In this document: positions 1 to 58,805 of the stretch, piece after piece
How positions within the stretch are numbered: position 1 is the first letter of the stretch
Layout of the letters: every line of letters starts with the position of its first letter
Assembly (NCBI RefSeq): GCF_023055435.1
Contig: NW_025963802.1
Location: 614,355-678,354 of the forward strand
Reading direction: 5' to 3'
Source of the DNA: Haliotis rufescens
Lineage: Eukaryota
Length of the DNA: 64,000 nt
The notes under the pieces: model-generated
What the model was told of the DNA's origin: nothing
Databases searched by the model: none
The model's input: only the letters and a program-made list of their open reading frames with translations
Translations under genes and position numbers: made by a program

Positions 1-3000
1 GAAGTGGGACAGAAGTGATGTGTGACAGAAGTGATGTGTGAACTGGGACAGACGTCATGTGTGAAGACCAGAAGTGATGTGTGAAGTGGGACAGAAGTGA
101 TGTGTGAAGTGGGCCCGATGTGATGTGTGAAGACCAGAAGTGATGTGTGAAGTGGGACAGACGTGATGTGTGAAGACCAGAAGTGATGTGTGAAGTGGGA
201 CAGAAGTGATGTGTCAAGTGGGACAGAAGTGAAGTGGGACAGAAGGGTTGTGTGATGTGGGACAGAAGTGATGTGTGAAGTGGGACAGAAATGTTGTGTG
301 AAGTGGGGCAGAAGTGAAGTGGGACAGAAGTGTTGTGTGAAGTGGGGCAGAAGTGATGTGTGAAGTGGGACAGAAGTGATGTGTGAAGTGGGACAGAAGT
401 GATGTGCGAAGTGGCTCAGAAGTGATGTGTGAAGTGGGACAGAAGTGATGTGTGACAGAAGGGTTGTGTGATGTGGGACAGAAGTGATGTGTGAAGTGGG
501 ACAGAAATGTTGTGTGAAGTGGGACAGAAGTGTTGTGTGAAGTGGGACAGAAGTGAAGTGTGAAGTGGGACAGAAGTGTTGTGTGAAGTGGGACAGAAGT
601 GTTGTGTGAAGTGGGACAGAAGTGATGTGTGAAGTGGGACAGAAGTGATGTGTGACAGAAGTGATGTGTGAACTGGGACAGACGTCATGTGTGAAGACCA
701 GAAGTGATGTGTGAAGTGGGACAGAAGTGATGTGTGAAGTGGGCCCGATGTGATGTGTGAAGACCAGAAGTGATGTGTGAAGTGGGACAGACGTGATGTG
801 TGAAGACCAGAAGTGATCTGTGAAGTGGGACAGAAGTGATGTGTCAAGTGGGACAGAAGTGAAGTGGGACAGAAGGGTTGTGTGATGTGGGACAGAAGTG
901 ATGTGTGAAGTGGGACAGAAATGTTGTGTGAAGTGGGGCAGAAGTGAAGTGGGACAGAAGTGTTGTGTGAAGTGGGGCAGAAGTGATGTGTGAAGTGGGA
1001 CAGAAGTGTTGTGTGAAGTGGGACAGAAGTGATGTGTGAAGTGGGACAGAAGTGATGTGCGAAGTGGCTCAGAAGTGATGTGTGAAGTGGGACAGAAGTG
1101 ATGTGTGAAGTGGGACAGATGTGTTGTGTGAAGTGGGACAGAAGTGATGTGTGAAGTAGGACAGAAGTGATGTGTGAAGTGGGACAGAAGCGATGTGTGA
1201 AGTGGGACAGAAGTTTTGTGTGAAGTGGGACAGAAGTGATGTGTGAAGTGGGACAGAAGTGATGTGTGAAGTGGGACGGAAATGTTGTGTGAAGACCAGA
1301 AGTGTTGTGTGAAGACCAGAAAAGATGTGTCAAGTGGGACAGAAGTGATGTGTGAAGTGGGAGAGAAGTGTTGTGTGAAGTGGGACAGAAAGGATGTGTG
1401 AAGTGGGACAGAAGTGATGTGTGAAGTGGGACAGAAGTGATGTGTGAAGTGGGACAGAAGTGATGTGTCAAGTGGGACAGAAGTGTTGTGTGAAGTGGGA
1501 CAGAAAGGATGTGTGAAGTGGGACAGAAGTGTTGTGTGAAGTGGGACAGAAGTGATGTGTGAAGTGGGACAGAAGTGATGTGTGAAGTGGGACAGAAGTG
1601 AAGTGGGACAGAAGTGATGTATGAAGTGGGACAGAAGTGTTGTGTGAAGTGGGACAGAAGTGAAGTGGGACAGAAGTGATGTGTGAAGTTGGACAGAAGT
1701 GATGTGTGATGTGGGACAGAAGTGTTGTGTGAAGTGGGACAGAAGTGATGTGTGAAGACCAGAAGTGATGGGTGAAGTGGGACAGAAGTGATGGGTGAAG
1801 TGGGACAGACGTGATGTGTGAAGTGGGACAGAAGTGTTGTGTGAAGTGGGACAGAAGTGATGTGTGAAGTGGGACAGAAGTGATGTGTGAAGTGGGACAG
1901 AAGTGTTGTGTGAAGTGGGCCCGATGTGCTTGTGAAGACCAGAAGTGATGTGTGAAGTGGGACAGAAGTGATGTGTGAAGTGGGACAGACGTGATGTGTG
2001 AAGTGGGACAGAAGTGATGTGTGAAGTGGGAGAGAAGTGTTGTGTGAAGTGGGCCCGATGTGCTGGTGAAGACCAGAAGTGATGTGTGAAGTGGGACAGA
2101 AGTGATGTGTGAAGTGGGACAGACGTGATGTGTGAAGTGGGAGAGAAGTGATGTGTGAAGTGGGACAGAAGTGTTGTGTGAAGTGGGCCCAATGTGCTGG
2201 TGAAGACCAGAAGTGATGTGTGAAGTGGAACAGAAGTGAAGTGTGAAGTGGGACAGAAGTGATGTGTGAAGTGGGACAGAAGTGTTGTGTGAAGTGGGAC
2301 AGAAGTGTTGTGTGAAGTGGGACAGAAGTGTTGTGTGAACTGGGACAGAAGTGATGTGTGAAGACCAGAAGTGATGTGTGAAGTGGGACAGAAGTGATGT
2401 GTGAAGTGGGACAGAAGTGTTGTGTGAAGTGGGCCCGATGTGCTTGTGAAGACCAGAAGTGATGTGTGAAGTGGGACAGAAGTGATGTGTGAAGTGGGAC
2501 AGAAGTGATGTGTGAAGTGGGACAGAAGTGATGTGTGAAGTGGGACAGAAGTGTTGTGTGAAGTGGGACAGAAGTGATGTGTGAAGTGGGACAGAAGTGA
2601 TGTGTGAAGTGGGACAGACGTGATGTGTGAAGTGGGACAGAAGTGATGTGTGAACTGGGACAGACGTGATGTGTGAACTGGGACAGACGTGATGTGTGAA
2701 GTGGGAAAGAAGTGAAGTGTGAAGTGGGACAGAAGTGAAGTGTGAAGTGGGACAGAAGTGATGTGTGAAGTGGGACAGAAGTGATGTGTGAAGTGGGACA
2801 GAAGTGTTGTGTGAAATGGGACAGAATTGATGTGTGAACTGGGACAGACGTGATGTGTGAAGTGGGACAGAAGTGATGTGTGAAGACCAGAAGTGATGTG
2901 TGAACTGGGACAGACGTGATGTGTGAAGACCAGAAGTGATGTGTGAAGTGGGACAAAAGTGTTGTGTGAAGTGGGCCCGATGTGCTTGTGAAGACCAGAA

Positions 3001-6000
3001 GTGATGTGTGAAGTGGGACAGAAGTGATGTGTGAAGTGGGACAGAAGTGATGTGTGAAGTGGGACAGAATTGATGTGTGAAGTGGGACAGAAGTGATGTG
3101 TGAAGTAGGACAGAAGTGATGTGTGAAGTGGGACAGAAGTGATGTGTGAAGTGGGACAGAATTGATGTGTGAAGTGGGACAGAAGTGATGTGTGAAGTGG
3201 GACAGAATTGATGTGTGAAGTGGGACAGAAGTGATGTGTGAAGTGGGACAGAAGTGATGTGTGAAGTGGGACAGAATTGATGTGTGAAGTGGGACAGAAG
3301 TGATGTGTGAAGTAGGACAGAAGTGATGTGTGAAGTGGGACAGAAGTGATGTGTGAAGTGGGACAGAATTGATGTGTGAAGTGGGACAGAAGTGATGTGT
3401 GAAGTGGGACAGAATTGATGTGTGAAGTGGGACAGAAGTGATGTGTGAAGTGGGACAGAATTGATGTGTGAAGTGGGACAGAATTGATGTGTGAAGTGGG
3501 ACAGAAGTGATGTGTGAAGTGGGACAGAAGTGATGTGTGAAGTGGGACAGAAGTGATGTGTGAACTGGGACAGACGTGATGTGTGAAGTGGGACAGAAGT
3601 GTTGTGTGAAGTGGGACAGAAGTGATGTGTGACAGAAGGGTTGTGTGATGTGGGACAGAAGTGATGTGTGAAGTGGGACAGAAATGTTGTGTGAAGTGGG
3701 ACAGAAGTGTTGTGTGAAGTGGGACAGAAGTGATGTGTGAAGTGGGACAGAAGTGTTGTGTGAAGTGGGACAGAAGTGTTGTGTGAAGTGGGACAGAAGT
3801 GATGTGTGACAGAAGTGATGTGTGAACTGGGACAGACGTCATGTGTGAAGACCAGAAGTGATGTGTGAAGTGGGACAGAAGTGATGTGTGAAGTGGGCCC
3901 GATGTGATGTGTGAAGACCAGAAGTGATGTGTGAAGTGGGACAGACGTGATGTGTGAAGACCAGAAGTGATGTGTGAAGTGGGACAGAAGTGATGTGTCA
4001 AGTGGGACAGAAGTGAAGTGGGACAGAAGGGTTGTGTGATGTGGGACAGAAGTGATGTGTGAAGTGGGACAGAAATGTTGTGTGAAGTGGGGCAGAAGTG
4101 AAGTGGGACAGAAGTGTTGTGTGAAGTGGGGCAGAAGTGATGTGTGAAGTGGGACAGAAGTGATGTGTGAAGTGGGACAGAAGTGATGTGCGAAGTGGCT
4201 CAGAAGTGATGTGTGAAGTGGGACAGAAGTGATGTGTGACAGAAGGGTTGTGTGATGTGGGACAGAAGTGATGTGTGAAGTGGGACAGAAATGTTGTGTG
4301 AAGTGGGACAGAAGTGTTGTGTGAAGTGGGACAGAAGTGAAGTGTGAAGTGGGACAGAAGTGTTGTGTGAAGTGGGACAGAAGTGTTGTGTGAAGTGGGA
4401 CAGAAGTGATGTGTGAAGTGGGACAGAAGTGATGTGTGACAGAAGTGATGTGTGAACTGGGACAGACGTCATGTGTGAAGACCAGAAGTGATGTGTGAAG
4501 TGGGACAGAAGTGATGTGTGAAGTGGGCCCGATGTGATGTGTGAAGACCAGAAGTGATGTGTGAAGTGGGACAGACGTGATGTGTGAAGACCAGAAGTGA
4601 TCTGTGAAGTGGGACAGAAGTGATGTGTCAAGTGGGACAGAAGTGAAGTGGGACAGAAGGGTTGTGTGATGTGGGACAGAAGTGATGTGTGAAGTGGGAC
4701 AGAAATGTTGTGTGAAGTGGGGCAGAAGTGAAGTGGGACAGAAGTGTTGTGTGAAGTGGGGCAGAAGTGATGTGTGAAGTGGGACAGAAGTGTTGTGTGA
4801 AGTGGGACAGAAGTGATGTGTGAAGTGGGACAGAAGTGATGTGCGAAGTGGCTCAGAAGTGATGTGTGAAGTGGGACAGAAGTGATGTGTGAAGTGGGAC
4901 AGATGTGTTGTGTGAAGTGGGACAGAAGTGATGTGTGAAGTAGGACAGAAGTGATGTGTGAAGTGGGACAGAAGCGATGTGTGAAGTGGGACAGAAGTTT
5001 TGTGTGAAGTGGGACAGAAGTGATGTGTGAAGTGGGACAGAAGTGATGTGTGAAGTGGGACGGAAATGTTGTGTGAAGACCAGAAGTGTTGTGTGAAGAC
5101 CAGAAAAGATGTGTCAAGTGGGACAGAAGTGATGTGTGAAGTGGGAGAGAAGTGTTGTGTGAAGTGGGACAGAAAGGATGTGTGAAGTGGGACAGAAGTG
5201 ATGTGTGAAGTGGGACAGAAGTGATGTGTGAAGTGGGACAGAAGTGATGTGTCAAGTGGGACAGAAGTGTTGTGTGAAGTGGGACAGAAAGGATGTGTGA
5301 AGTGGGACAGAAGTGTTGTGTGAAGTGGGACAGAAGTGATGTGTGAAGTGGGACAGAAGTGATGTGTGAAGTGGGACAGAAGTGAAGTGGGACAGAAGTG
5401 ATGTATGAAGTGGGACAGAAGTGTTGTGTGAAGTGGGACAGAAGTGAAGTGGGACAGAAGTGATGTGTGAAGTTGGACAGAAGTGATGTGTGATGTGGGA
5501 CAGAAGTGTTGTGTGAAGTGGGACAGAAGTGATGTGTGAAGACCAGAAGTGATGTGTGAAGTGGGACAGAAGTGATGGGTGAAGTGGGACAGACGTGATG
5601 TGTGAAGTGGGACAGAAGTGTTGTGTGAAGTGGGACAGAAGTGATGTGTGAAGTGGGACAGAAGTGATGTGTGAAGTGGGACAGAAGTGTTGTGTGAAGT
5701 GGGCCCGATGTGCTTGTGAAGACCAGAAGTGATGTGTGAAGTGGGACAGAAGTGATGTGTGAAGTGGGACAGACGTGATGTGTGAAGTGGGACAGAAGTG
5801 ATGTGTGAAGTGGGAGAGAAGTGTTGTGTGAAGTGGGCCCGATGTGCTGGTGAAGACCAGAAGTGATGTGTGAAGTGGGACAGAAGTGATGTGTGAAGTG
5901 GGACAGACGTGATGTGTGAAGTGGGAGAGAAGTGATGTGTGAAGTGGGACAGAAGTGTTGTGTGAAGTGGGCCCAATGTGCTGGTGAAGACCAGAAGTGA

Positions 6001-9000
6001 TGTGTGAAGTGGAACAGAAGTGAAGTGTGAAGTGGGACAGAAGTGATGTGTGAAGTGGGACAGAAGTGTTGTGTGAAGTGGGACAGAAGTGTTGTGTGAA
6101 GTGGGACAGAAGTGTTGTGTGAACTGGGACAGAAGTGATGTGTGAAGACCAGAAGTGATGTGTGAAGTGGGACAGAAGTGATGTGTGAAGTGGGACAGAA
6201 GTGTTGTGTGAAGTGGGCCCGATGTGCTTGTGAAGACCAGAAGTGATGTGTGAAGTGGGACAGAAGTGATGTGTGAAGTGGGACAGAAGTGATGTGTGAA
6301 GTGGGACAGAAGTGATGTGTGAAGTGGGACAGAAGTGTTGTGTGAAGTGGGACAGAAGTGATGTGTGAAGTGGGACAGAAGTGATGTGTGAAGTGGGACA
6401 GACGTGATGTGTGAAGTGGGACAGAAGTGATGTGTGAACTGGGACAGACGTGATGTGTGAACTGGGACAGACGTGATGTGTGAAGTGGGAAAGAAGTGAA
6501 GTGTGAAGTGGGACAGAAGTGAAGTGTGAAGTGGGACAGAAGTGATGTGTGAAGTGGGACAGAAGTGATGTGTGAAGTGGGACAGAAGTGTTGTGTGAAA
6601 TGGGACAGAATTGATGTGTGAACTGGGACAGACGTGATGTGTGAAGTGGGACAGAAGTGATGTGTGAAGACCAGAAGTGATGTGTGAACTGGGACAGACG
6701 TGATGTGTGAAGACCAGAAGTGATGTGTGAAGTGGGACAAAAGTGTTGTGTGAAGTGGGCCCGATGTGCTTGTGAAGACCAGAAGTGATGTGTGAAGTGG
6801 GACAGAAGTGATGTGTGAAGTGGGACAGAAGTGATGTGTGAAGTGGGACAGAATTGATGTGTGAAGTGGGACAGAAGTGATGTGTGAAGTAGGACAGAAG
6901 TGATGTGTGAAGTGGGACAGAAGTGATGTGTGAAGTGGGACAGAATTGATGTGTGAAGTGGGACAGAAGTGATGTGTGAAGTGGGACAGAATTGATGTGT
7001 GAAGTGGGACAGAAGTGATGTGTGAAGTGGGACATAAGTGATGTGTGAAGTGGGACAGAATTGATGTGTGAAGTGGGACAGAAGTGATGTGTGAAGTAGG
7101 ACAGAAGTGATGTGTGAAGTGGGACAGAAGTGATGTGTGAAGTGGGACAGAATTGATGTGTGAAGTGGGACAGAAGTGATGTGTGAAGTGGGACAGAAGT
7201 GATGTGTGAAGTGGGACAGAATTGATGTGTGAAGTGGGACAGAAGTGTTGTGTGAAGTGGGACAGAAGTGATGTGTGACAGAAGTGATGTGTGAACTGGG
7301 ACAGACGTCATGTGTGAAGACCAGAAGTGATGTGTGAAGTGGGACAGAAGTGATGTGTGAAGTGGGCCCGATGTGATGTGTGAAGACCAGAAGTGATGTG
7401 TGAAGTGGGACAGACGTGATGTGTGAAGACCAGAAGTGATGTGTGAAGTGGGACAGAAGTGATGTGTCAAGTGGGACAGAAGTGAAGTGGGACAGAAGGG
7501 TTGTGTGATGTGGGACAGAAGTGATGTGTGAAGTGGGACAGAAATGTTGTGTGAAGTGGGGCAGAAGTGAAGTGGGACAGAAGTGTTGAGTGAAGTGGGG
7601 CAGAAGTGATGTGTGAAGTGGGACAGAAGTGATGTGTGAAGTGGGACAGAAGTGATGTGCGAAGTGGCTCAGAAGTGATGTGTGAAGTGGGACAGAAGTG
7701 ATGTGTGACAGAAGGGTTGTGTGATGTGGGACAGAAGTGATGTGTGAAGTGGGACAGAAATGTTGTGTGAAGTGGGACAGAAGTGTTGTGTGAAGTGGGA
7801 CAGAAGTGAAGTGTGAAGTGGGACAGAAGTGTTGTGTGAAGTGGGACAGAAGTGTTGTGTGAAGTGGGACAGAAGTGATGTGTGAAGTGGGACAGAAGTG
7901 ATGTGTGACAGAAGTGATGTGTGAACTGGGACAGACGTCATGTGTTAAGACCAGAAGTGATGTGTGAAGTGGGACAGAAGTGATGTGTGAAGTGGGCCCG
8001 ATGTGATGTGTGAAGACCAGAAGTGATGTGTGAAGTGGGACAGACGTGATGTGTGAAGACCAGAAGTGATCTGTGAAGTGGGACAGAAGTGATGTGTCAA
8101 GTGGGACAGAAGTGAAGTGGGACAGAAGGGTTGTGTGATGTGGGACAGAAGTGATGTGTGAAGTGGGACAGAAATGTTGTGTGAAGTGGGGCAGCAGTGA
8201 AGTGGGACAGAAGTGTTGTGTGAAGTGGGGCAGAAGTGATGTGTGAAGTGGGACAGAAGTGTTGTGTGAAGTGGGACAGAAGTGATGTGTGAAGTGGCTC
8301 AGAAGTGATGTGTGAAGTGGGACAGAAGTGATGTGTGAAGTGGGACAGATGTGTTGTGTGAAGTGGGACAGAAGTGATGTGTGAAGTAGGACAGAAGTGA
8401 TGTGTGAAGTGGGACAGAAGCGATGTGTGAAGTGGGACAGAAGTTTTGTGTGAAGTGGGACAGAAGTGATGTGTGAAGTGGGACAGAAGTGATGTGTGAA
8501 GTGGGACGGAAATGTTGTGTGAAGACCAGAAGTGTTGTGTGAAGACCAGAAAAGATGTGTCAAGTGGGACAGAAGTGATGTGTGAAGTGGGAGAGAAGTG
8601 TTGTGTGAAGTGGGACAGAAATGATGTGTGAAGTGGGACAGAAGTGATGTGTGAAGTGGGACAGAAGTGATGTGTGAAGTGGGACAGAAGTGATGTGTCA
8701 AGTGGGACAGAAGTGTTGTGTGAAGTGGGACAGAAAGGATGTGTGAAGTGGGACAGAAGTGTTGTGTGAAGTGGGACAGAAGTGATGTGTGAAGTGGGAC
8801 AGAAGTGATGTGTGAAGTGGGACAGAAGTGAAGTGGGACAGAAGTGATGTATGAAGTGGGACAGAAGTGTTGTGTGAAGTGGGACAGAAGTGAAGTGGGA
8901 CAGAAGTGATGTGTGAAGTTGGACAGAAGTGATGTGTGAAGTGGGACAGAAGTGTTGTGTGAAGTGGGACAGAAGTGATGTGTGAAGACCAGAAGTGATG

Positions 9001-10210
9001 GGTGAAGTGGGACAGAAGTGATGGGTGAAGTGGGACAGACGTGATGTGTGAAGTGGGACAGAAGTGTTGTGTGAAGTGGGACAGAAGTGATGTGTGAAGT
9101 GGGACAGAAGTGATGTGTGAAGTGGGACAGAAGTGTTGTGTGAAGTGGGCCCGATGTGCTTGTGAAGACCAGAAGTGATGTGTGAAGTGGGACAGAAGTG
9201 ATGTGTGAAGTGGGACAGACGTGATGTGTGAAGTGGGACAGAAGTGATGTGTGAAGTGGGAGAGAAGTGTTGTGTGAAGTGGGCCCGATGTGCTGGTGAA
9301 GACCAGAAGTGATGTGTGAAGTGGGACAGAAGTGATGTGTGAAGTGGGACAGACGTGATGTGTGAAGTGGGAGAGAAGTGATGTGTGAAGTGGGACAGAA
9401 GTGTTGTGTGAAGTGGGCCCAATGTGCTGGTGAAGACCAGAAGTGATGTGTGAAGTGGAACAGAAGTGAAGTGTGAAGTGGGACAGAAGTGATGTGTGAA
9501 GTGGGACAGAAGTGTTGTGTGAAGTGGGACAGAAGTGTTGTGTGAAGTGGGACAGAAGTGTTGTGTGAACTGGGACAGAAGTGATGTGTGAAGACCAGAA
9601 GTGATGTGTGAAGTGGGACAGAAGTGATGTGTGAAGTGGGACAGAAGTGTTGTGTGAAGTGGGCCCGATGTGCTTGTGAAGACCAGAAGTGATGTGTGAA
9701 GTGGGACAGAAGTGATGTGTGAAGTGGGACAGAAGTGATGTGTGAAGTGGGACAGAAGTGATGTGTGAAGTGGGACAGAAGTGTTGTGTGAAGTGGGACA
9801 GAAGTGATGTGTGAAGTGGGACAGAAGTGATGTGTGAAGTGGGACAGAAGTGAAGTGGGACAGAAGTGTTGTGTGAAGTGGGACAGAAGTGTTGCGTGAA
9901 GTGGGACAGAAGTGATGTGTGAAGACCAGAAGTGATGTGTGAAGTGGGACAGAAGTGATGGGTGAAGTGGGACAGACGTGATGTGTGAAGTGGGACAGAA
10001 GTGATGTGTGAAGTGGGACAGACGTGATGTGTGAAGTGGGACAGAAGTGATGTGTGAAGTGGGACAGAAGTGTTGTGTGAAGTGGGTCCGATGTGCTTGT
10101 GAAGACCAGAAGTGATGTGTGAAGTGGGACAGAAATGATGTGTGAACTGGGACAGAAGTGTTGTGTGAAGTGGGACAGAAGTGATGTGTGAAGACCAGAA
10201 GTGATGTGTG
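1..10210. repeat. Tandem satellite with a 23-bp monomer (GTGAAGTGGGACAGAAGTGATGT). Variant monomers include GAAGACCAGAA (20 bp) and a 16-bp form, and the array is organised into a higher-order repeat of about 3.78 kb. It continues past the left edge of the window.
   Basis: Direct reading shows 23-bp periodicity across the whole interval. The identical 846-aa ORFs at 416..2956 and 4200..6740 give an exact 3784-bp offset. The block at 1-420 recurs at 644-1070, 3781 and 7261. The array ends abruptly at about 10210 into GA-rich sequence. Confidence 0.97.
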
Positions 10211-12086
10211 AAGAGAAAAAGATAGAAAGAGAAAGAGAAAGAAGGCTGTGTGACTCAGTTCAATGCATGTCCTGGCCTATCAATTGGTTAGATCAACCCT
10301 GGTGATGTCAATCATAGGATTGTCTTTACATTCTCAAAATACAGACCGCCATCATATTGCTGACTGCTGCACTAAACAACATTCAATCACTAACACACTC
10401 ATTTGACAATAATCCTGAAACAAACAAAGCCATGGTGGAAAAGAGATCAATTTATTTACTTCTTAATCTTTGTAAGGACAGCTCCAATTCACAAGTAGTG
10501 TTCTACAGCAGTAGAGCAGGATTACTGTGATACCAAAAAATTGAGGTGATACTGTTTCTAAAATGTTGACAAATGCCAAGATCCAACATAAGGTATTGTG
10601 GGGTCTCATACACTGAACCCTATATTCATGAAACCATTGTCAAAAGGAACATCACCGCAAGCAGTAGGTGAGTTCTCTCCCTTTGTCCACGTTCCTGACA
10701 GGCATCATGGTCTGCCTACTTGTGGTGAATAGGCCAAGGGGACTGACTGCAAATTTAAAAAATGTGACAGCATCTAATTCACAGGAACAATTGTCAGAAA
10801 TAGCACTGTGCCAAACTGAAATAGCCAACAAGGTCCAAACACTTTGTTCCTTGAAGAAATAATTCACTATTGATGAAAATTCTTAAAATAATTCATCTTT
10901 TTTTCTAACGAAGGCAGAACCTGACATATTCACAGACTTGTGACAGGCTACCTTTAAACCATGAAACTTTTTTATTTACCTGTCCACTCTAATTTTGATG
11001 GATAAGAAAAGTTTCAAGGACAAATGCAAGAACATGTTAACTCAATTTTGTTACAATAACGGTTCAAATGCATAGTATACCTGTTATCTCAGGCAAAGGC
11101 AAACACAACACATTCAATACAAGCCTTTCTCGGCGATAATTGAACACCTGTAATGGTAGAGATAAACACAGGTTTATCCACTACCATGTTTACCTGATCA
11201 ACACATACAATGTCATACAAACACACACACACAATATTTTGACCAACCCATGCCACCTGTTCATAAAAACTTCTGTAAATCATACATTATTTTTTAAATC
11301 CCAGACTGTAGACTGTACTGCCACCTTTTTCATGAACACTTTCAGTTATATTTAGCACTATAACTTAAGGAAACCCTAAAACAACATCCCCCCCTGATCT
11401 TGACAGCAGGAATCTCATGAACCCAATATACAGCCAAGGCACTAACAGGCAAGCAGACTTCCCCCAGATGCAAAAGCCTGAGTTCAGAGCTCCAGATAAG
11501 CTGCGTATCTGCGTGAAATACGCATCAGAAATGCAGAAATACACAGTAAAATATAATCCAAGCATATCAAATATGCAACGAACATTACAGATATGCTACA
11601 AAAATAAAACTTGTGCGTATCATCAAAATATTGTGAAATAACCCTGTGTATTCGATTAGCAAACCAGCAACTTATTTTGAAATTATAAACGGGCATTCCG
11701 TCAACCTTGCCAAACTCCACGATGACAGTTACATCATGATCATTTGCCATCACACTTTCTTGTGGAAGTATCGTGGTATTTTTGAGTCCTATAAAGCTCT
11801 CGAACCCCCACGACACCAGTTTGCAGGGACTAGATGAATAGTGTTTTTAAATATTTAACTTAAATACCCACATGTGTAAAAACTAGTGGGTAACAGAAAT
11901 TTGAATACGCAGATAGAATTACTGATACCCAATGATTTTAAAATGCATGGGTAAAATACCCACAACACCAAAAGCTTATCTGGAGCTCTGTGAGTTAAAT
12001 GCAAATCATGTTATCACATGTTATTTGGTGATAATGTCTGATAATGTGTGGTGATTATGTCTCATAATGTCTGGTGCTTTCACCAA

Positions 12087-13765: not shown

Positions 13766-15003
13766 ATGCTGTATAATGCTGCATAATGCTGTATAATGCT
13801 GTATAATGCTGTATAATGCTGCATAATGCTGTATAATGCTGTATAACGCTGTATAACGCTGTATAATGCTGTATAATGCTGTATAATGTTGCATAACGCT
13901 GTATAATGCTGTATAATGCTGTATAATGCTGTATAATGTTGTATAATGCTGTATAATGCTGTATAATGTTGCATAACGCTGTATAATGTTGCATAACGCT
14001 GTATAATGCTGTATAATGCTGTATAATGCTGTATAATGTTGTATAATGCTGTATAATGCTGTATAATGTTGTATAATGCTGTATAATGCTGTATAATGTT
14101 GCATAACGCTGTATAATGCTGTATAATGCTGTATAATGTTGTATAATGCTGTATAATGTTGCATAACGCTGTATAATGCTGTATAATGCTGTATAATGCT
14201 GTATAATGTTGTATAATGCTGTATAATGCTGTATAATGTTGCATAACGCTGTATAATGCTGTATAATGCTGTATAATGCGGTATAATGCTGTATAATGCT
14301 GTATAATGCTGTATAATGCTGTATAATGTTGTATAATGCTGTATAATGCTGTATAATGTTGTATAACGCTGTATAATGCTGTATAATGCTGTATAATGCT
14401 GTATAATGCGGTATAATGCTGTATAATGCTGTATAATGCTGTATAATGCGGTATAATGTTGTATAATGCTGTATAATGCTGTATAATGCTGTATAATGCT
14501 GTATAATGCGGTATAATGTTGTATAATGCTGTATAATGCTGTATAATGCTGTATAATGCTGTATAATGCGGTATAATGTTGTATAATGCTGTATAATGCT
14601 GTATAATGCTGTATAATGCTGTATAATGCTGTATAATGCGGTATAATGTTGTATAATGCTGTATAATGCTGTATAATGCTGTATAATGCTGTATAATGCG
14701 GTATAATGTTGTATAATGCTGTATAATGCTGTATAATGCTGTATAATGCTGTATAATGCGGTATAATGTTGTATAATGCTGTATAATGCTGTATAATGTT
14801 GTATAATGCTGTATAATGCTGTATAATGTTGTATAACGCTGTATAATGCTGTATAATGCTGTATAATGCTGTATAATGCTGTATAATGCGGTATAATGCT
14901 GTATAATGCTGTATAATGCTGTATAATGCTGTATAATGCTGTATAATGCTGTATAATGCGGTATAATGCTGTATAATGCTGTATAATGCTGTATAATGCT
15001 GCA
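13766..15003. repeat. 10-bp tandem array (GCTGTATAAT)n of about 120 copies. Variant units are GTTGTATAAT, GCGGTATAAT and GTTGCATAAC. There is a local higher-order repeat of 60-70 bp.
   Basis: Direct reading. The ORFs at 13714..15114 and others in this interval are periodic artefacts. Confidence 0.95.
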
Positions 15004-38694: not shown

Positions 38695-40128
38695 TTGGAT
38701 AACTCAGGGTCACTTGCAGAACTCTGGGTCACATCCAAAACGCCCGAGCTTAACAAATATTGGTCACGTCCCCTAGAACACAGACCACAGGTCGATCAGT
38801 GGCTTGCGTAACTCAGGGTCACATCCCCGAGAACACAGACCACAGGTCGATCAGTGACTTACAGAACTCAGGGTCACATCCCCGAGAACACAGACCACAG
38901 GTCGATCAGTGACTTACAGAACTCAGGGTCACATCCCCGAGAACACAGACCACAGGTCGATCAGTGACTTGCGTAACTCAGGGTCACATCCCCGAGAACA
39001 CAGACCACAGGTCGATCAGTGACTTGCGTAACTCAGGGTCACATCCCCGAGAACACAGACCACAGGTCGATCAGTGGCTTGCGTAACTCAGGGTCACATC
39101 CCCGAGAACACAGACCACAGGTCGATCAGTGGCTTGCGTAACTCAGGGTCACATCCCCGAGAACACAGACCACAGGTCGATCAGTGACTTACAGAACTCA
39201 GGGTCACATCCCCGAGAACACAGACCACAGGTCGATCAGTGACTTGCGTAACTCAGGGTCACATCCCCGAGAACACAGACCACAGGTCGATCAGTGACTT
39301 GCGTAACTCAGGGTCACATCCCCTAGAACACAGACCACAGGTCGATCAGTGACTTGCGTAACTGAGGGTCACCTACCTCGATCAAACAGACGCTCAGTGA
39401 CTTACACAACTCAGGGTCACATCCCCTAGAACACAGACCACCAGTCGCTCAGTGACTTACATATCTCAGGATCACATCCTCTATCAAACAAACCACCAGT
39501 CTATCAGTGACTTGCATTACTCTTGGTCACATCCCCTAGAAGACAGACCACCAGTCGCTCAGCGACTTGCGTAACTGAGACCAACAGTCAAACAGACCAA
39601 CAGTCGTTCAGTGACTTACAGAACTCAGGGTCACATACCTCTATCAAACAGACCACCAGTCGCTCAGTGACTTACAGAACTCAGGGTCACATACCTCTAT
39701 CAAACAAACCACCAGTCGCTCAGTGACTTGCGTAACTCAGGGTCACATACCTCTATCAAACAGACCAACAGCCGCTCAGTGACTTACAGAACTCAGGGTC
39801 ACATTCCTCAATCAAACAGACCACCAGTCGCTCAGTGACTTGCGTAACTCAGGGTCACATCCCTCTATCAAACAGGCCACCAGTCGCTCAGTGATTTACA
39901 GAACCCAGGGTCACATACCTCTATCAAACAGACCACCAGTCGCTCAGTGACTTGCGTAACTCAGGGTCACATACCTCTATCAAACAGACCACCAGTCGCT
40001 CAGTGACTTGCGTAACCCAGGGTCACATACCTCTATCAAACAGACCAACAGTCGCTCAGTGACTTACACAACTCAGGGTCACATACCTCTATCAAACAGA
40101 CCACCAGCCGCTCAGTGACTTACAGCTA
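38695..40128. repeat. 55-bp satellite of about 26 copies with two subfamilies. One is ...acatccccgagaacacagaccacaggtcgatcagtgacttgcgta and the other is ...acatacctctatcaaacagaccaccagtcgctcagtgacttacag.
   Basis: Direct reading. The switch between subfamilies lies at about 39350. Confidence 0.95.
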
Positions 40129-46124: not shown

Positions 46125-46838
46125 TTGTTAAACGCCCCTTCACAGTTCCAGCAGCCTATTCTCATCCCTTTCTCAGGTCCAGCAGCCAATTCCCATCCCC
46201 TTCCCAGCTCTAGCAGCCTATACCCAACCCCTCAGCTCCAGCAGCCTAAACTTATCCCCTTCTCAGCTCTACCAGCCTATACTCATCCTCTTCTCAGCTC
46301 TAGTAACCTACACCCAACCCCTCAGCTCTGGCATCCTGTACTCATCCCGTTCTCACCTCAAGTAGCCTATGCACATCCCCTTCTCAACTCTAGCAGCCTA
46401 CACCCACCCCGTCAGCTCCAGCAGCCTAAACCTATCCTCTTCTCAACTCTAGCAGCCTATGCACATCCCCTTCTCAACTCTAGCAGCCTACACCCACCCC
46501 GTCAGCTCCAGCAGCCTAAACCTATCCTCTTCTCAACTCTAGCAGCCTATGCACATCCCCTTCTCAACTCTAGCAGCCTACACCCACCCCGTCAGCTCCA
46601 GCAGCCTAAACTTATCCCCTTCCCAGCTATAGCATCCCATACCAACCCCCTTCTCGGTTGTAGTAGCCTATACTCATCCCCTCCTTAAGTCTAGCAACAT
46701 ATACTCATCCTCTTCTCAGCTGTAGCATCCTATACCCACCCCCTCAGCTCCAACAGTCTATACTCATCCCCTCAGCTCCAACAGCCTATACTCATTCCCT
46801 CCGCTCTACCAGCCTATACCCATCCCCTTCTCTTCATT
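46125..46838. repeat. Tandem repeat with a unit of about 30 bp (ttctcagctctagcagcctatactcatcccc) and a higher-order structure of about 90 bp. It continues at 47100-47290 after a SINE.
   Basis: Direct reading. The ORF 46125..46688 is an artefact. Confidence 0.9.
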
Positions 46839-47099: not shown

Positions 47100-47433
47100 C
47101 CTCTCAGCTCCAGCAACCTATACGCATCCGCTTCTCAGCTCTGGCATCCTGTACTCATCCCCTTCTCAACTCTAGCAGCCTATGCTCATCCCCTTCTCAA
47201 CTCTAGCAGGCCTACACCCATCCCGTCAGCTCCAGCAGCCTAAACCTATCCCCTTCTCCACTCTAGCAGCCTATACTCATCCCTTCTCCACATTTCAATT
47301 AAAAGTCTTAAGAATTCCTTAATACTCGAGTATGGTCAAGGTCGACCCCTCCTTCACCCGCCGTGTCCTGCACCAGTGTATCTCACAATGCTTGGCTTCA
47401 ATCACTTCCTTTGTCCGTTTTCAGATTGTGAGA

Positions 47434-48174
47434 ATGCAGCGCTTATATTCTGTCGACATCCGGGTCAGTGAATTAGAGCGCATGCGCGTGGTATGGAGCG
47501 TGAACGTTGGAACAGGAAGGGCCACATTCGCATCTGATGCCGACTCTCATGACACAGATGGTGGTTCTGAAAATGTGCTGTTGTATTATCACAGCACCAT
47601 CTACATCAGCCTGTCGGGGGTTGATGGGCGTGGTGGTGATTGTGGCGCCGTTTCGACGTTGCTGGCCGTTAGAGAAGACGGTTCCAAAGGAACCATAGTG
47701 CATACATCCAGTTATCCACCATCAAATTTTGCTGTTTACGATGACGTCACGTTTTGTCATGACGACAACGTTCAGATGCCAGTCGTCTGGGTTGCTCAGC
47801 AACGGGGTTCTGTTATTTCAGCACTTAACCCGAAAACTAAAAGCATGTTCATGAATATTACTTTAAATGCCTTACTGAATGTAAAACACGTCAGGCTATC
47901 CTCAAGACTAATGGTACACATCGACACTGCCGACAGGTTTGTTCTCATGCTCTCATTGAGCATTGCAAATACCACCGCTCTGATGTACTCCCAACACCTT
48001 GTGACGCTGCAAGGAGTTCTGTCTTCTCACAAAGCACCAACAGTGATGTGGAATACTGCATTACCTGATTCCTTTATGGTTGAAGGCCAAATCAGTTTTG
48101 TGAGCGCATCCTATGAGACGCTTGTCGGAACTGGTAGAAATATGACCGGTGTGTATGCATTTGGTTTCCGCTAA
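47434..48174 (+). CDS. Hypothetical protein, paralog 1, about 246 aa. It begins MQRLYSVDIRVSELE....
   Basis: It lies inside the 280-aa ORF 47332..48174. Similarity to the downstream ORF begins exactly at this ATG (MQRLYSVDI / MQRLYAIDL), and both C-termini end VEGQISFV.../EVQGQIAV.... No family is recognised. Confidence 0.5.
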   Translation: MQRLYSVDIRVSELERMRVVWSVNVGTGRATFASDADSHDTDGGSENVLLYYHSTIYISLSGVDGRGGDCGAVSTLLAVREDGSKGTIVHTSSYPPSNFAVYDDVTFCHDDNVQMPVVWVAQQRGSVISALNPKTKSMFMNITLNALLNVKHVRLSSRLMVHIDTADRFVLMLSLSIANTTALMYSQHLVTLQGVLSSHKAPTVMWNTALPDSFMVEGQISFVSASYETLVGTGRNMTGVYAFGFR

Positions 48175-48690: not shown

Positions 48691-48842
48691 TGCAAGCTTA
48701 ACATTCTCACTGCCCTGGCTTAACTGAGCCTATACCCTTGTCTATAAAGACAAGGTAAAAGACTGGCATATTAATGGATATCATATTGTGTCGCAGATTA
48801 AACCAGGTTCTTCCACATTTTCCACAGCTAGGTACTCTGGGT

Positions 48843-50213
48843 ATGCAGCGTCTGTACGCCATAGACCTCTTGGACCGCTTGTTGCAGCCTATCGATATCG
48901 TCTGGTACTTCAACCTGGAACTAGAGGTCAAGGTCAACTGCCGGCGACCAGAGAAATCTACGGAATCGTCCCAAGATGAAGGGAAACAAAACGCTGGGAA
49001 CGTAGCAGGTAGTAAACATAAACCCACGTCCGAGATCTCACGTGATAAGAAGATAGTAGGACCTGGGAACCCTGATGAAATGAAACGGTCTCGTCTCTCC
49101 AGAAACAAACGTGACACACTCGAGCACGACACGAGACTGAAGTATATGACGGCTAATCAGGTGGATGGTAACTCCGTCCTCCTAGACATGCTCACACGAT
49201 CTGAAACAAAGGGTGGAACAAATATTTGGGAACCAACCAACAGTTTGCGGAATCCAGTACTTCGACATGGCGAATCTAAGGATGTTGTGGGAATGGTTCA
49301 GGACGAATTCATTCTTTCTACCGGTACAGGAAACACAAACAAGCATCAAAACTCTGGTACTTCCGGTACGGGCGGTTCACACAAGGGCCGCCATCCCAGC
49401 GACAGGATTCGTCACCAATGGTCTCAGCAGGCAAGTGAACAGTCCAGTTTGATATACTTCTTTGGAACAGTGATGGCAAGTGTGGCGCCCCCTACAGGGA
49501 TCTGTGATATGCTGACATTGGAAGAAAATCGTCAGTGCTGCCTGGAAAGCTCATTTTCCAAATTGGTGGGTATTCAAGATCTAGGTACAAACATGAGCTT
49601 GTCGTACAGCAATAACTTCTCCCTCTCTCATATGTCGGTCTATGACGATTCCTATGGCAGACAGGGTCTGGACTCGTCATGGAACGCTCGTGTGAAACAA
49701 AAACTCCGGGACACAGATCCTAACGGCGAAAAAACAACAGTCACTCACTCAAAGCAACGGGCCAGGCTTGGCGAGGGAAGCCTAGTGTGGGCTGTCACGC
49801 AGTTTGGCGACACCATTAACGGATTCGATCAAATCTCCAGCCAGGTCCAACAAATCGCTAACGTCTCCCACATGCTAAACACCAGCGTACAAGTGACGTC
49901 AAGGGTAATGGTAGCCATAGATCCCAAAACGCATGCTGACCTCCTTCTTTTCGCCGTAAGACGGGTTAATAAAACTCAGCCCCACTCTTCCTATAATGCG
50001 ACGAATTACTTGGTTGCCTTGGATACATCCTTTGGGGACGGTCAGCAAAACATAATGTGGACACTTCCGGTTCCCTATGATTATGAAGTTCAAGGTCAGA
50101 TTGCCGTGTTGGAAGTTCCGTGGGTTAAAAGCTCTTCGCCGCTTTTAGTCGCAACAGCCCAGGGTCCTGTCAGCCAGATAGCGTTCGCCTTTAACTTCAC
50201 CCAGACAGGGTGA
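48843..50213 (+). CDS. Hypothetical protein, paralog 2, about 456 aa. It begins MQRLYAIDLLDRL... and carries an inserted low-complexity region of about 170 aa rich in S/T/G/K.
   Basis: It lies inside the 479-aa ORF 48774..50213 and is homologous to 47434..48174 at the N-terminal and C-terminal thirds (VYDD, MWNTALP/IMWTLPVP, VEGQISF/VQGQIAV). Confidence 0.5.
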   Translation: MQRLYAIDLLDRLLQPIDIVWYFNLELEVKVNCRRPEKSTESSQDEGKQNAGNVAGSKHKPTSEISRDKKIVGPGNPDEMKRSRLSRNKRDTLEHDTRLKYMTANQVDGNSVLLDMLTRSETKGGTNIWEPTNSLRNPVLRHGESKDVVGMVQDEFILSTGTGNTNKHQNSGTSGTGGSHKGRHPSDRIRHQWSQQASEQSSLIYFFGTVMASVAPPTGICDMLTLEENRQCCLESSFSKLVGIQDLGTNMSLSYSNNFSLSHMSVYDDSYGRQGLDSSWNARVKQKLRDTDPNGEKTTVTHSKQRARLGEGSLVWAVTQFGDTINGFDQISSQVQQIANVSHMLNTSVQVTSRVMVAIDPKTHADLLLFAVRRVNKTQPHSSYNATNYLVALDTSFGDGQQNIMWTLPVPYDYEVQGQIAVLEVPWVKSSSPLLVATAQGPVSQIAFAFNFTQTG

Positions 50214-54989: not shown

Positions 54990-55132
54990 GTGAGGGAGTT
55001 TGATTTTACGCTGCTTTTAGCAATATTCCAGCAATATCACGGCGGGGGACACCAGAAATGGGCTTCACACTCGAACCCGGGACTTCGGCGTGACGAGCGA
55101 ACGCTTTAACCACTAGGCTACCCGACCGCCCC
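54990..55132 (-). mobile_element. SINE family A copy with an internal deletion.
   Basis: Sequence identity. Confidence 0.7.
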
Positions 55133-56463
55133 GCCTTCAACATTAAGGCGACATGAAATCGGGTATAACATTGCGTACAGATTCTTGCACTTACATACAG
55201 TAAATACTCATCATGAAGCCATGTCAGGATGGTGATATCTGATTGGTTCACGTGTTGATAAAATACTGTGTACTATAGTTCGGTTGGTTTTATAGTTCTA
55301 GCCTCACTGAATTGATGAGATGATGTAACTTCGCGTTCAAGATTATTGCACTTATATAGCGACGAGCAGGCACGTGTGGCTGCTGGTTTGCTTATTGTTT
55401 TTAATTCCGCACACATCAATATTCCAGCTATACAACGGCGGCCTGTAAATATCGATTCTGGGCCTAACAATCCAGTGATCGATATTATGAGCAACGATCC
55501 GCGTCGTTTGGTTACGATGACTGGCAATCAACAAGTTACCCCGATCCATTTGGTAGCTATATGGCTGAAATAATGTCGATGCGACGTTGTTTTGACTGAC
55601 TCACTCTTACGATCAGCAAAGGCTGCTGGGAAAACGACTGTCGGGGTTAACACACACTCATTTGTTAACAAACGTGTGAGTGTTAATTACAGTACATATT
55701 TTAAGTATATGCATGTTAAAACAATCGTTCCTTTCACGGTAAACTAATGTCATTTGACAAAGAAAAACAAACAATCTTGTATGAATTACATCTATATTCT
55801 ATGATACTAAAACTACTACTTCTCAATACAGCAGAGCCTTTACAAAGTCGCCCTATTTACAGGAGGCATATTCCATCAGTATTCGATACTGGCGGTCATA
55901 AAATAACATATCAATAAAACTGTCGGAAACTTCTAAAATTTCAAATTTACAATGGCGTATAATCCTACATGCTAAAGCATCATAAATAAAATCATTAAAT
56001 GCACAATAATTAAGATCTACTGGAAAATCAACAAAAACTCTGAAATCCTAAAATGTAAAATTTCAAGCTAATTCTTATAACGTACTCTGAGAATGATTTT
56101 TTTTCAAACTAAAACGTCTCCAAATTTGACAGTCCATTGCACCACATACATTGTTAAAATGTCCCTGCATTTTAACACATAAGCACTGTATTCTTTGTCA
56201 AAACGGTAAATTCGTTTTGAACACAGCACTCCTCTTCAACACATTCACGTGTTCCTAGGCTAAACAATAAACAAAACTAGATAGTTAATATCATACACAA
56301 CACAGGCGAGTTCATCATCAATTTCTCATTCGAGTCAAGATTAAAATCAGTTGCGAATAAAATCAGCTCCATTCATCTGGAAAACTGGATGCATTACGAG
56401 TCCCCGTTATAACAACACACTTGAAAGGTGGAATGTAACAGTATACACACTCTGGTAAACTCT

Positions 56464-57351
56464 TCATGTACGACGCTTTTTACCTGTGGCCATGCGCGTC
56501 GTACGGAGAGGAGAGGGGCTGGTTCGAAACTCCGAGTCGTTGTTGAAGGGACAGTATTTGATGGTGTGGGCGTGGTCCCCGATGGCTTGGCAGATTGGAC
56601 ACGGGTACTTCCTCAACACTGGGCACGCTGTATACCCACGGGAATCCTTCAAAACATGTCCTGTGTACACGTGTGGAGGTTCTTTGTTGTTCTTGCAGAA
56701 TACACAGATCAACTTCGATTTTTTCTTCCCCTGCACCTGTAGTTGTGTGGCATCACCACGGGCTGTCTTGCACTGTTTGAGCCACAGGTATTCCTTGATC
56801 CGATCATTTGGAACAACCGGGATCTCGCGGGTGGGGGGTTCGTGCCCACGCACCTTTTGTTGTATGATGTCATACTCGTCCAGTTCGTAAGTAGTTCCGT
56901 TTCTTTCGAATTCCGCCGTCGTCAAAGCACAAAGTCTTTCCTGGTCTAACTTGCTGAAATTCGAATTCACAAGCGATGGATTTGAAGCTTGGAAACTTGC
57001 ATATTTGAAGCTGTCGCTACTCTCGTCCGATGACAGGGAAATATCGGAACTAGGGCTCAGCTCGCCCCGGCCCCCGGCGAACTCCTGACACAACCCAAAG
57101 TAGTCCTGGTAGGGGTCGTAGATGTGGTCGTTCCCCAGACATAACACGTCGCTAAACGCGGAGTCATTCCTACCTATGAAGTCTTCTTTGGCGGACAAGA
57201 TTTTCTTCTTGGCGAGCTGTGGCGTGAATTTGGGGATCTGAGGGAGTAGTAGGCTTTGGTGGTTTGGAACACCATCCCCAGCGAGTAGTTCAAAGTCGTC
57301 AGTCGTACGACAGTCCCCGGAGTCAGGTTCCAGCACAGGGTGTAGTAGCAT
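56464..57351 (-). CDS. nanos: Nanos-type RNA-binding zinc-finger protein, 295 aa. It is a single exon.
   Basis: The ORF 56464..57366 contains [53 protein letters not shown]. This matches the two CCHC knuckles of the nanos zinc finger exactly, as C-x2-C-x12-H-x10-C and C-x2-C-x7-H-x4-C. The first in-frame ATG is at 57351, and the track start at 57366 is a GTG. There is an upstream in-frame TGA. Confidence 0.88.
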
Positions 57352-58805
57352 TGTTGAATCAGCCACAGGTCGCCTCCGAGTTAAAGATGGTAGCCTCGGT
57401 CAATGGTGCGCCGCCTTGGGTGATAGAATTTGGGCAGCACTGACGACTCTTGCACCTGGCACGTGTGACGGCGCACGGATTCCACGTGCATTTTATAACT
57501 CGCCATACGTCCAGGCCGCCAACGGTTTTCATTGGCTCGGGTTTTCCCGTCAATTAACAATTGGGCGGCGCTTACATTATTTGTAAACATAAATCACGTG
57601 ACACTAAAGTCGTTGGGGTAACGAAGTAACTATTTTATCAGAAATGACGATCAGTTTGATATTTTGTATCTCAACCATAAATGTTATTTTTGATGACGCA
57701 CTCAAAATACAATGATGATAATTTAAGTACGTGAAGTCGCAATATAATATATTTTCAGCATGCCAGCGGAAATCATGTAGTTATATAAAAATGTAACAGC
57801 GCCATTGACAATATTGTTTCCAATATATAAAGGAATGATGTTACCCGTTTAGATGCATATACAGCTAATAATTATGGTAAAAACTAAGTAGCATCAACTT
57901 GACCTTACACGCGAAGAATGTGGGACCTAGTATGAATGGACTGACAGTGACACAATGTAACACTACATGAATTTGCAATATAGCTACAGTATTGCCACGT
58001 CGCAATGAAACGGCCTTATCAAACACACGGCGCAATATATTTGAAGAGTATCACAATGAGCCACAATGACTGTAAACCAATATCTAATGCATTGCCATGA
58101 TGTACAAAATATAAGCGTCAAAGCCATGTCCATAATCTTAATACACCTCAGCCAATAGAAATACTTAAATTGGTCTTATCGAAAACTCCACGAAGCTGAG
58201 AAGATGCAATTTACACTGTAGTGCGTGGATTCAGATCAGTAGGGCGAATTTTTAAAAAGTCGAATATTTGTTTTGATTTCATCAAAATGTTGAGTAGGGG
58301 AAACATCAATTGTGAGAGGGTATGTTTAAGAGGAATTTTCAACAGATATTAATTATGGTATTTTAATAATTTATTTATAAGAGTATATTAACACAAAATC
58401 ACTGCTTTTCATTTTTTGTCAAATCTGGCCTTGTATGAGTAGGGGAAACATCAATTGTGAGAGGGTATGTTTAAGAGGAATTTTCAACAGATATTAATTA
58501 TGGTATTTTAATAATTTATTTATAAGAGTATATTAACACAAAATCACTGCTTTTCATTTTTTGTCAAATCTGGCCTTGTATGAACAAACAGAAATATAGG
58601 GATGTGGGTTGAAAATAGAAATATGATATAATTAAACATTGGATCAAAGCATTTCACGTATTCCTGAACAAATGCACTTGTTAGACCTTTACAAAACTGC
58701 AATATAGTTGAAAAAAATAATATAAATTTTATTTCCCAGCTATCATCAGAACGGCTATAGTGCTTGACATTTCTGCCCTCGATGTCTACAGCCCATGCAG
58801 GAATG

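Follow-up and report, generated by a model that had tools for sequence, protein, structure and literature searches.

The stretch of abalone (Haliotis) DNA described here, 64,000 nucleotides of contig NW_025963802.1 (positions 614,355 to 678,354; hereafter the window), carries a nanos gene on its minus strand. We regard it as very nearly certain that the region is the Haliotis nanos gene in the form of a compact unit of approximately 1.7 kb with one coding exon, and its five-part protein most likely works through the repressor mechanism typical of the family. The gene has been described before and is a typical, well conserved representative of the Nanos family, whose members are familiar as translational repressors in germline and stem cells. 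It belongs to that family by sequence and is the ortholog of HasNanos from Haliotis asinina. Its coding region is uninterrupted and under strong purifying selection, and the pattern of a NOT1-interacting motif (NIM) in the protein is conserved, as are the promoter and the 3′ untranslated region (3′UTR). The coding sequence, the parts of the protein and the open reading frames (ORFs) that lie opposite to it are as follows.

56464..57351, minus strand: nanos coding sequence, 295 codons followed by a TGA stop at 56464-56466, in a single coding exon

57127..57351, minus strand: N-terminal extension, residues 1-75, matched only in Haliotis and predicted to be disordered

57070..57120, minus strand: candidate NIM, residues 78-94 (core 78-87), recognised by spacing and conservation

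56866..56916, minus strand: second N-terminal motif, residues 146-162, D/E-F-x-x-N-G-x4-L/I-D-D/E-x-D, from the survey of homologues

56548..56706, minus strand: Nanos zinc-finger domain, residues 216-268, from a regular expression, Pfam, AlphaFold and Foldseek

56623-56706, minus strand: finger 1, C216/C219/H232/C243, with canonical CCHC spacing

56551-56601, minus strand: finger 2, C251/C254/H262/C267, with canonical CCHC spacing

56467..56508, minus strand: basic C-terminal tail, residues 282-295, from a 22-sequence alignment (alignment A1)

56428-56742, 56486-56890 and 56743-56949, plus strand: antisense ORFs, for which 104, 134 and 68 amino acids are given

The original prediction, which was made from the sequence, had proposed an intronless nanos ortholog with a canonical double CCHC finger, and the assignment to the family is borne out by the Pfam score, the exact spacing of the zinc ligands and the matches to solved structures. 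The zf-nanos profile PF05741, put forward at the time as a check, matches residues 216-268 strongly (80.4 bits against a gathering cut-off of 27 bits; E=1.1e-22; model positions 1-53 of 54), and the regular expression C-X2-C-X12-H-X10-C-X7-C-X2-C-X7-H-X4-C is matched exactly by residues 216-267. When solved chains were searched with phmmer, Drosophila Nanos as present in the ternary complexes with Pumilio and RNA (5KL1/5KL8) was recovered at E=1.5e-16 and zebrafish Nanos (3ALR) at E=2e-14. A profile-free scan of 1.84 billion representative proteins returned 1726 relatives at E<=0.001, with 983 of these at E<=1e-10. The mechanical ORF, 56464..57366, begins at a GTG, and the first ATG, at 57351, lies five codons further in and gives a protein of 295 amino acids. 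That translation starts at this ATG rather than at the GTG (57366), as had been argued, agrees with the annotated orthologues, all of which are 295 residues long; the in-frame TGA reported upstream of the ATG is likewise present, at 57400-57402, and is the nearest upstream stop in frame.

All eight zinc-ligand residues of the finger domain are invariant in alignment A1, in which the conservation of residues was judged throughout, and the AlphaFold model, which was also built on a 22-sequence alignment, gives predicted local distance difference test (pLDDT) scores of 81-92 over the fingers. The scores fall below 50 over residues 1-74 and 93-130, in keeping with the disordered N-terminal region that had been foreseen. 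When compared with the PDB by Foldseek, the model found Nanos chains in all of the top six places (5KL8_B, 5KL1_B and 3ALR_A-D; E 6e-7 to 5e-6), with target-normalised template-modelling (TM) scores of 0.72-0.96 and root-mean-square deviations (RMSD) of 0.5-2.2 Å, while all lower-ranked matches had E >0.8. The modelled finger fold is thus that of the solved Nanos structures. The 53-residue finger architecture had been described exactly but was said to be C-terminal, which it is not, as 27 residues follow the domain. The end of this tail fits the consensus LKTxRxSTGKKR, which is common to sequences from molluscs, an annelid and a hemichordate, to a sea-urchin-type sequence and to a vertebrate-type Nanos1-like sequence, and R286 and G290 within it are at least 90% conserved.

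The window protein is 100% identical to XP_046343830.1 (H. rufescens LOC124124652) and XP_071090883.1 (H. cracherodii). The Nanos-like protein of H. asinina, ACT35656.1, shares 96% of its residues with it along the full 295 amino acids, and the alignment needs no gap. At the DNA level, the gene block matches the H. rufescens locus at 97.4% identity, and the flanks do so at 85-95% with indels (BLAST), which points to a close relative rather than to the H. rufescens assembly compared, with H. cracherodii or another North Pacific abalone as the likely source. The flanks of nanos can be aligned with their counterparts in H. rufescens, H. rubra and H. asinina. This full-length collinear identity, together with the shared genomic neighbourhood, makes the window gene the ortholog of HasNanos, which is the H. 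asinina gene of Kranz et al. (2010; J Exp Zool B 314B:267), cited under ACT35656.1 in PMC8871563. A contig of genomic DNA from run DRR299178 has the same protein product and is likewise 97.4% identical. This contig was considered as a possible nanos transcript and rejected, as it proved to be genomic, collinear DNA of a further closely related species.

Substitutions within the genus show how strongly the protein is maintained. Against H. rubra, synonymous divergence (dS) is 0.315 and nonsynonymous divergence (dN) is 0.017, giving a dN/dS of 0.054; against H. asinina the values are dS=0.364, dN=0.025 and dN/dS 0.069. Over residues 216-295, which comprise the fingers and tail, 16-20 synonymous differences are found vs. 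0 nonsynonymous ones, and the finger domain has undergone zero nonsynonymous changes at dS 0.37-0.51 among four Haliotis species (the window and the H. rufescens, H. rubra and H. asinina loci, which make up the four-species alignment used hereafter). The N-terminal extension has the highest dN/dS in the gene, 0.15-0.25, yet it is still constrained. Codons 1-75 showed less synonymous divergence than the finger region, with p=0.03 for H. asinina and p=0.5 for H. rubra, and a reduction in these codons is not established.

The structure of the coding region is supported by two kinds of evidence. In the H. rufescens, H. rubra and H. asinina assemblies, the nanos gene calls span exactly 888 nt for the 295-residue product, and the H. 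asinina GenBank protein, which was reportedly cloned from cDNA, differs from its own genomic ORF by two substitutions and no gaps. Given these gene calls and the collinearity of the GenBank protein with the genomic ORF, the coding region is a single exon. The description of the gene as intronless therefore holds for the coding region, the part in which the calls from the three genomes show it.

The mechanism that we propose is drawn by analogy from other members of the family. The finger domain, which would have little RNA specificity of its own, would join Pumilio on UGUA-containing elements in the 3′UTRs of target mRNAs, while the NIM would dock on the C-terminal domain of CNOT1 and bring in the CCR4-NOT deadenylase. 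Recruitment of CCR4-NOT would then lead to translational repression and shortening of the poly(A) tail. In addition, the nanos mRNA may itself be under post-transcriptional control through its conserved 3′UTR. Post-transcriptional control of nanos mRNAs is a feature of other animals too. It has been described for the sea-urchin nanos mRNAs (bioRxiv 10.1101/2022.08.12.503758), and the conservation of the abalone 3′UTR fits with this.

The setting in which such a repressor acts is open to more than one interpretation. According to PMC8871563, HasNanos mRNA is maternal, becomes enriched in the micromere and D-quadrant lineages and is later found in the mesodermal bands; in the snail Tritia (Ilyanassa), knock-down of nanos removes mesodermal and endodermal tissues. 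Because HasNanos is expressed in these lineages, abalone nanos is likely, by analogy, to function in multipotent lineages of the soma in addition to the germline. A stronger form of this idea, in which multipotent somatic lineages (2d/4d derivatives and mesodermal bands) are the main site of action and the term germline repressor is too narrow, draws on the same expression and knock-down results. We consider it a real possibility, though not the one that we favour: it does not conflict with a germline role, it would change the biology while leaving the gene's molecular identity as it is, and the sequence holds nothing that discriminates between the two.

The original prediction did not include the known effector motif, the NIM, which spans residues 78-94 in the abalone protein. 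In human Nanos1, this motif consists of 17 residues, of which F40, W43 and Y46 insert into a pocket of CNOT1 and D45 is invariant, and binding to CNOT1 is abolished by the mutations F40A and W43E (Bhandari et al., 2014; PMC4003280). The NIM is present in all vertebrates and in some invertebrates (PMC4003280), and because the latter are already reported, its occurrence in abalone is not new. The abalone protein has Y78, Y81, D83 and Y84, followed by F85, G86 and L87, which places aromatic residues at positions i, i+3 and i+6 in the spacing of F40, W43 and Y46, with an Asp at i+5. For the survey of motifs, the best 150 of the 1726 homologues at E<=0.001 were taken, and counts were made over 149 representatives. 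A NIM regular expression was matched in 57 of the 149, including a vertebrate-type sequence, FNSWNDYLGL, that is aligned in the same column. A short helix is modelled at residues 80-83, in surroundings with a pLDDT of <50. A search of PDB sequences with residues 60-113 returned no match, chains of <20 residues being outside that library and the motif being too short to score.

The two Tyr residues at the positions of F40 and W43 raise the question of whether this stretch still functions. It is conceivable that it lost the ability to bind CNOT1 when Phe and Trp were replaced by Tyr, and that abalone Nanos recruits its effectors by other means, either in the manner of the Nanos effector domain (NED) of flies or through its second conserved acidic motif. 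The loss of binding in the human F40A and W43E mutants bears on exactly these two sites. Moreover, fly Nanos has no detectable NIM and instead uses a NED of 187 residues with several binding sites, and Nanos in insects and in worms recruits CCR4-NOT in the absence of a NIM (Raisch et al., 2016; PMC5207322). The presence of a second conserved motif in the abalone protein also points in this direction. However, both substitutions exchange one aromatic residue for another, and among invertebrate homologues in which the motif is otherwise retained, F or Y is the most frequent residue at the Trp position. In alignment A1, D83 does not vary, and conservation reaches at least 90% at Y84 and L87; D83 and Y84 are the invariant or nearly invariant positions of the motif. 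The 38-nt run that encodes the NIM is unchanged across the four species. We therefore judge this alternative route of recruitment improbable; a non-functional NIM is unlikely, and a NIM that would dock on CNOT1 remains the preferred reading.

The sequence on either side of the NIM is less familiar. The motif DDFELL, to which attention had been drawn, is indeed present in the N-terminal region at residues 18-23 (window 57283-57300), but it does not correspond to any recognised Nanos motif, and the segment around it has been seen in Haliotis alone; to our knowledge, no Nanos motif of this form has been described. Among the best 150 of the 1726 homologues, no non-Haliotis sequence has a best-scoring stretch that starts before residue 74, and several relatives have their own N-terminus where the alignment to the abalone protein starts, at residues 74-79. 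The N-terminal region had also been called S/D-rich, which is true of a patch at residues 97-114 and holds more weakly for the region as a whole (L 11%, S 9%, D 9%). The second motif occurs in 46 of the 149 representatives, and two of its residues, F148 and D158, reach a conservation of at least 90% in alignment A1. Its carriers include Patella, Magallana, Pecten, Liolophura, Owenia and Saccoglossus as well as sea-urchin-type Nanos.

A narrow search of the literature found no description of, or established function for, either the second motif or the Haliotis-only extension, and these two are the sole features of the gene that go beyond the literature reached. In one sea-urchin-type homologue (P0111), the sequence DDFNSNG is found upstream of ITELSKVMRG, and the latter has been quoted as forming the conserved end of the NPDE, the Nanos protein degradation element (bioRxiv 10.1101/2022.08.12.503758). 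A link between the second motif and this sea-urchin degron, suggested by sequence, is speculation. A tentative and rather doubtful suggestion is that the second motif is an undescribed short linear motif, serving either for effector docking or as a stability element related to the NPDE, and that the extension with DDFELL is a lineage-specific regulatory add-on.

Conservation extends well outside the coding region. In the four-species alignment, a single conserved block runs from ~57,660 to ~55,750, with unalignable sequence on either side, and it contains the following features.

57466..57604, minus strand: conserved core promoter, from the four-species alignment, with predicted factor binding

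57492-57497, minus strand: TATAAA, identical in the four species

57483-57488 (just 3′ of the TATA box) and 57595-57600, minus strand: CACGTG boxes, identical in the four species

57531-57535, minus strand: CCAAT box, identical in the four species

57563-57568, minus strand: CCGCCC, a core promoter motif

57570-57604, minus strand: 35-nt block GTGTCACGTGATTTATGTTTACAAATAATGTAAGC, invariant in the four Haliotis species, with CACGTG and a forkhead-like TGTTTAC

57352..57465, minus strand: predicted 5′UTR of ~115 nt, its start placed ~27-32 nt below the TATA box

55775..56463, minus strand: predicted 3′UTR of ~690 nt, its end placed from conservation (which fades near 55750) and from a motif

55912-55954 and 55957-55991, minus strand: 3′UTR runs of 43 and 35 nt, invariant in the four species, AU-rich, with UUUUAU and UGUAAAUU elements

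starts at 55991, 55919 and 55903, minus strand: UUUUAU elements, in the most conserved distal block

55854-55861, minus strand: Pumilio-type UGUAAAUA, single copy, conserved in the four species

55793-55798, minus strand: variant signal AATATA, then a T/GT-rich tract, beyond which conservation decays

The promoter diverges by 0.12 (Fisher p ~1e-5 to 1e-4) and the predicted 3′UTR by 0.09-0.17, vs. 0.26-0.29 at synonymous sites; for the conserved promoter and 3′UTR blocks in the comparisons with H. rubra and H. asinina, divergence is 0.09-0.13 (Fisher p ~1e-5 to 2e-4). Because these blocks are two- to three-fold less diverged than synonymous sites, they are under constraint of their own. The predicted 5′UTR is 90% identical to that of H. 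rubra and H. asinina and places an A at -3 of the ATG, and no ATG occurs between the TATA box and 57351. No polypyrimidine-AG acceptor was seen upstream of the ATG, and four-species conservation is unbroken from the TATA box and promoter to the putative poly(A) signal. In the predicted 3′UTR, neither AATAAA nor ATTAAA was found. At a greater distance, ~0.8 kb upstream of the nanos promoter, the window contains a perfect two-copy tandem duplication of 145 bp (58291-58583). The event is recent in the lineage of the window, since the H. rufescens locus and the DRR299178 contig each carry the sequence once.

What the conserved 3′UTR binds can be narrowed to some extent. A scan of 55000-58200 against Rfam at E<=1 gave no match, and no stable RNA structure was detected in the most conserved block, 55790-56000 (z=-0.07 vs. 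shuffles). With no Rfam match and no excess folding energy, the conserved 3′UTR is more likely to hold linear binding sites than a folded element. A miR-430-type GCACUU site was not found in the 3′UTR. The original prediction had recommended a search for Pumilio or UGUA motifs here, and this yielded one conserved UGUAAAUA, the weight of which is considered below. UGUA cores occur in the 3′UTR at 13/kb vs. a background of 7.5/kb, a density that is based on nine sites only.

The pattern of selection and conservation also excludes a processed pseudogene or recent retrocopy of nanos, in which the absence of an intron would be the result of retroposition. The coding region without an intron is what such an origin would explain, and no further support for it was found; single-exon nanos genes are common in animals. 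Against it, dN/dS is 0.05-0.07 and an intact ORF of equal length is kept in five Haliotis sequences. In H. rufescens the same neighbour gene sits beside the locus; in H. rubra the two share a contig, and in H. asinina a chromosome. A TATA-box promoter and a 3′UTR that have diverged less than neutral sequence would not have been carried along by a retrocopy. The sequence inspected showed neither a flanking poly(A) tract nor a target-site duplication, and the protein collection yielded just one cluster of Haliotis Nanos. The pattern of selection, together with the conserved position and promoter, leaves retroposition with almost no likelihood. Least credible of all is the idea that the three plus-strand ORFs at 56428-56949, which do exist in the window at the lengths given above, encode real overlapping proteins: one or more of the other Haliotis species carry stop codons within each of them, with the minus frame remaining intact, and the substitutions all fit purifying selection on the minus frame, so that the earlier view of them as artefacts is upheld.

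Several points weigh against the identification of this unit as a nanos gene that works in the manner of its family. The RefSeq label for the protein is merely "uncharacterized", with all four of the Haliotis nanos models (XP_046343830.1, XP_071090883.1, XP_046559469.1 and XP_067656543.1), which come from H. rufescens, H. cracherodii, H. rubra and H. asinina, being named "uncharacterized protein", even though the zf-nanos domain is strong and GenBank has had a named ortholog since 2010. The ends of the transcript and the lack of introns in the UTRs are predicted, and expression is taken from the H. asinina ortholog. The motif UGUAAAUA occurs 34 times in the window, which corresponds to ~0.18 expected per 690 nt, and the lone copy in the 3′UTR is regarded as not above chance; as the surrounding block is conserved anyway, this copy is not independent evidence for Pumilio. 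The NIM has Tyr in place of both Phe40 and Trp43 of human Nanos1. Finally, the sequence match to Drosophila Nanos ends with the fingers, and the fly tail region is not recognisably conserved in abalone. Since the match to the fly chain ends there, the mode of contact with Pumilio may differ.

The remainder of the window contains a small number of candidate genes and several repeat arrays. A large plus-strand gene, placed by BLAST alignment of the loci, begins at ~63.2 kb and lies head-to-head with nanos; its counterpart in H. rufescens encodes a 2652-residue product. Tail-to-tail with nanos are two further ORFs.

47332-48174 and 48774-50213, plus strand: ATG-initiated ORFs of 280 and 479 amino acids, respectively

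These two ORFs share 27% identity over 139 residues, and both are kept as ORFs in H. rufescens. The 479-residue product matches only "uncharacterized" Haliotis proteins, at 75% for H. rubra LOC124268518 and 66% for H. asinina; LOC124268518 is on the nanos contig in H. rubra, and the counterpart in H. asinina is on the nanos chromosome. It looks like the product of a fast-evolving gene with matches so far only in Haliotis. A Pfam search of seven other long ORFs in the window, these two included, identified no family, and no tRNA genes were found in the window.

A 23-bp satellite with the consensus GTGAAGTGGGACAGAAGTGATGT occupies 15-10213 in ~459 copies with 84% matches; its two strands differ strongly in composition (GC skew +0.74), and it fills the first 10 kb and continues past the left edge. 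At 13766-15001, tandem copies of a 10-bp unit, ATGCTGTATA (~124 copies, 92% matches), give rise to spurious long ORFs on the minus strand. Minisatellites with units of 55/56 bp and 31 bp are found at 38762-40125, 46135-46832 and 47102-47288, with the 31-bp arrays directly upstream of the 280-residue ORF.

Beyond annotation, the identification of nanos in the window matters little, as the cloning of the H. asinina gene, with an account of its expression, dates from 2010 and models exist in several abalone genomes. The four Haliotis RefSeq models that are now "uncharacterized protein" could be renamed nanos. The conserved promoter and 3′UTR blocks are candidates for germline reporters or for the engineering of sterility in abalone aquaculture.

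Comparison with known systems places the abalone gene in a graded series of relatives. The closest is HasNanos (ACT35656.1 / C7EAA0), which has the same length of 295 amino acids and is identical to the window protein in its zinc fingers, NIM, second motif and tail; thirteen substitutions separate the two proteins, none of them in the fingers or tail. Further away are the Nanos proteins of other spiralians and of ambulacrarians, which have 30-40% overall identity to the abalone protein and can be aligned from approximately residue 75 to the end. The order of modules, consisting of the NIM, the D/E-F-x-x-N-G...L-D-E-x-D motif, the fingers and the basic tail, is common to abalone and these proteins, and is found in the molluscs Patella caerulea (KAK6177972.1), Magallana gigas (nanos homolog 1, XP_011456725.2) and Pecten maximus (XP_033757476.1) as well as in Owenia fusiformis (CAH1784498.1) and Saccoglossus kowalevskii (NP_001161595.1). 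In contrast to the abalone protein, with its ~75 additional N-terminal residues, these relatives start at or near the NIM. A few residues of the abalone finger domain are also unusual when set against theirs, such as NNKEPP for NNGE.., and another that replaces.YTCPLCGASGD.

Vertebrate Nanos1-3, represented by the zebrafish structure 3ALR, have the same two CCHC fingers at 45-52% identity and an RMSD of 0.5-2.2 Å, and the vertebrate-type Nanos1-like sequence carries a basic tail after the fingers, as abalone Nanos does. The vertebrate-type Nanos in the alignment is without the second acidic motif, and the abalone NIM lies behind a 75-residue extension, unlike that of vertebrate Nanos. Drosophila Nanos (5KL1/5KL8) is 57% identical in the finger domain over 54 aligned columns, with an RMSD of 1.0 Å, and the presumed outcome, recruitment of CCR4-NOT, is the same as in abalone. 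Because the abalone protein carries a clear NIM, molluscs can be grouped with vertebrates in this respect, and, to judge from the sequence, abalone and other molluscs fall with the vertebrate mode of CCR4-NOT recruitment and not with the NED mode of Drosophila.

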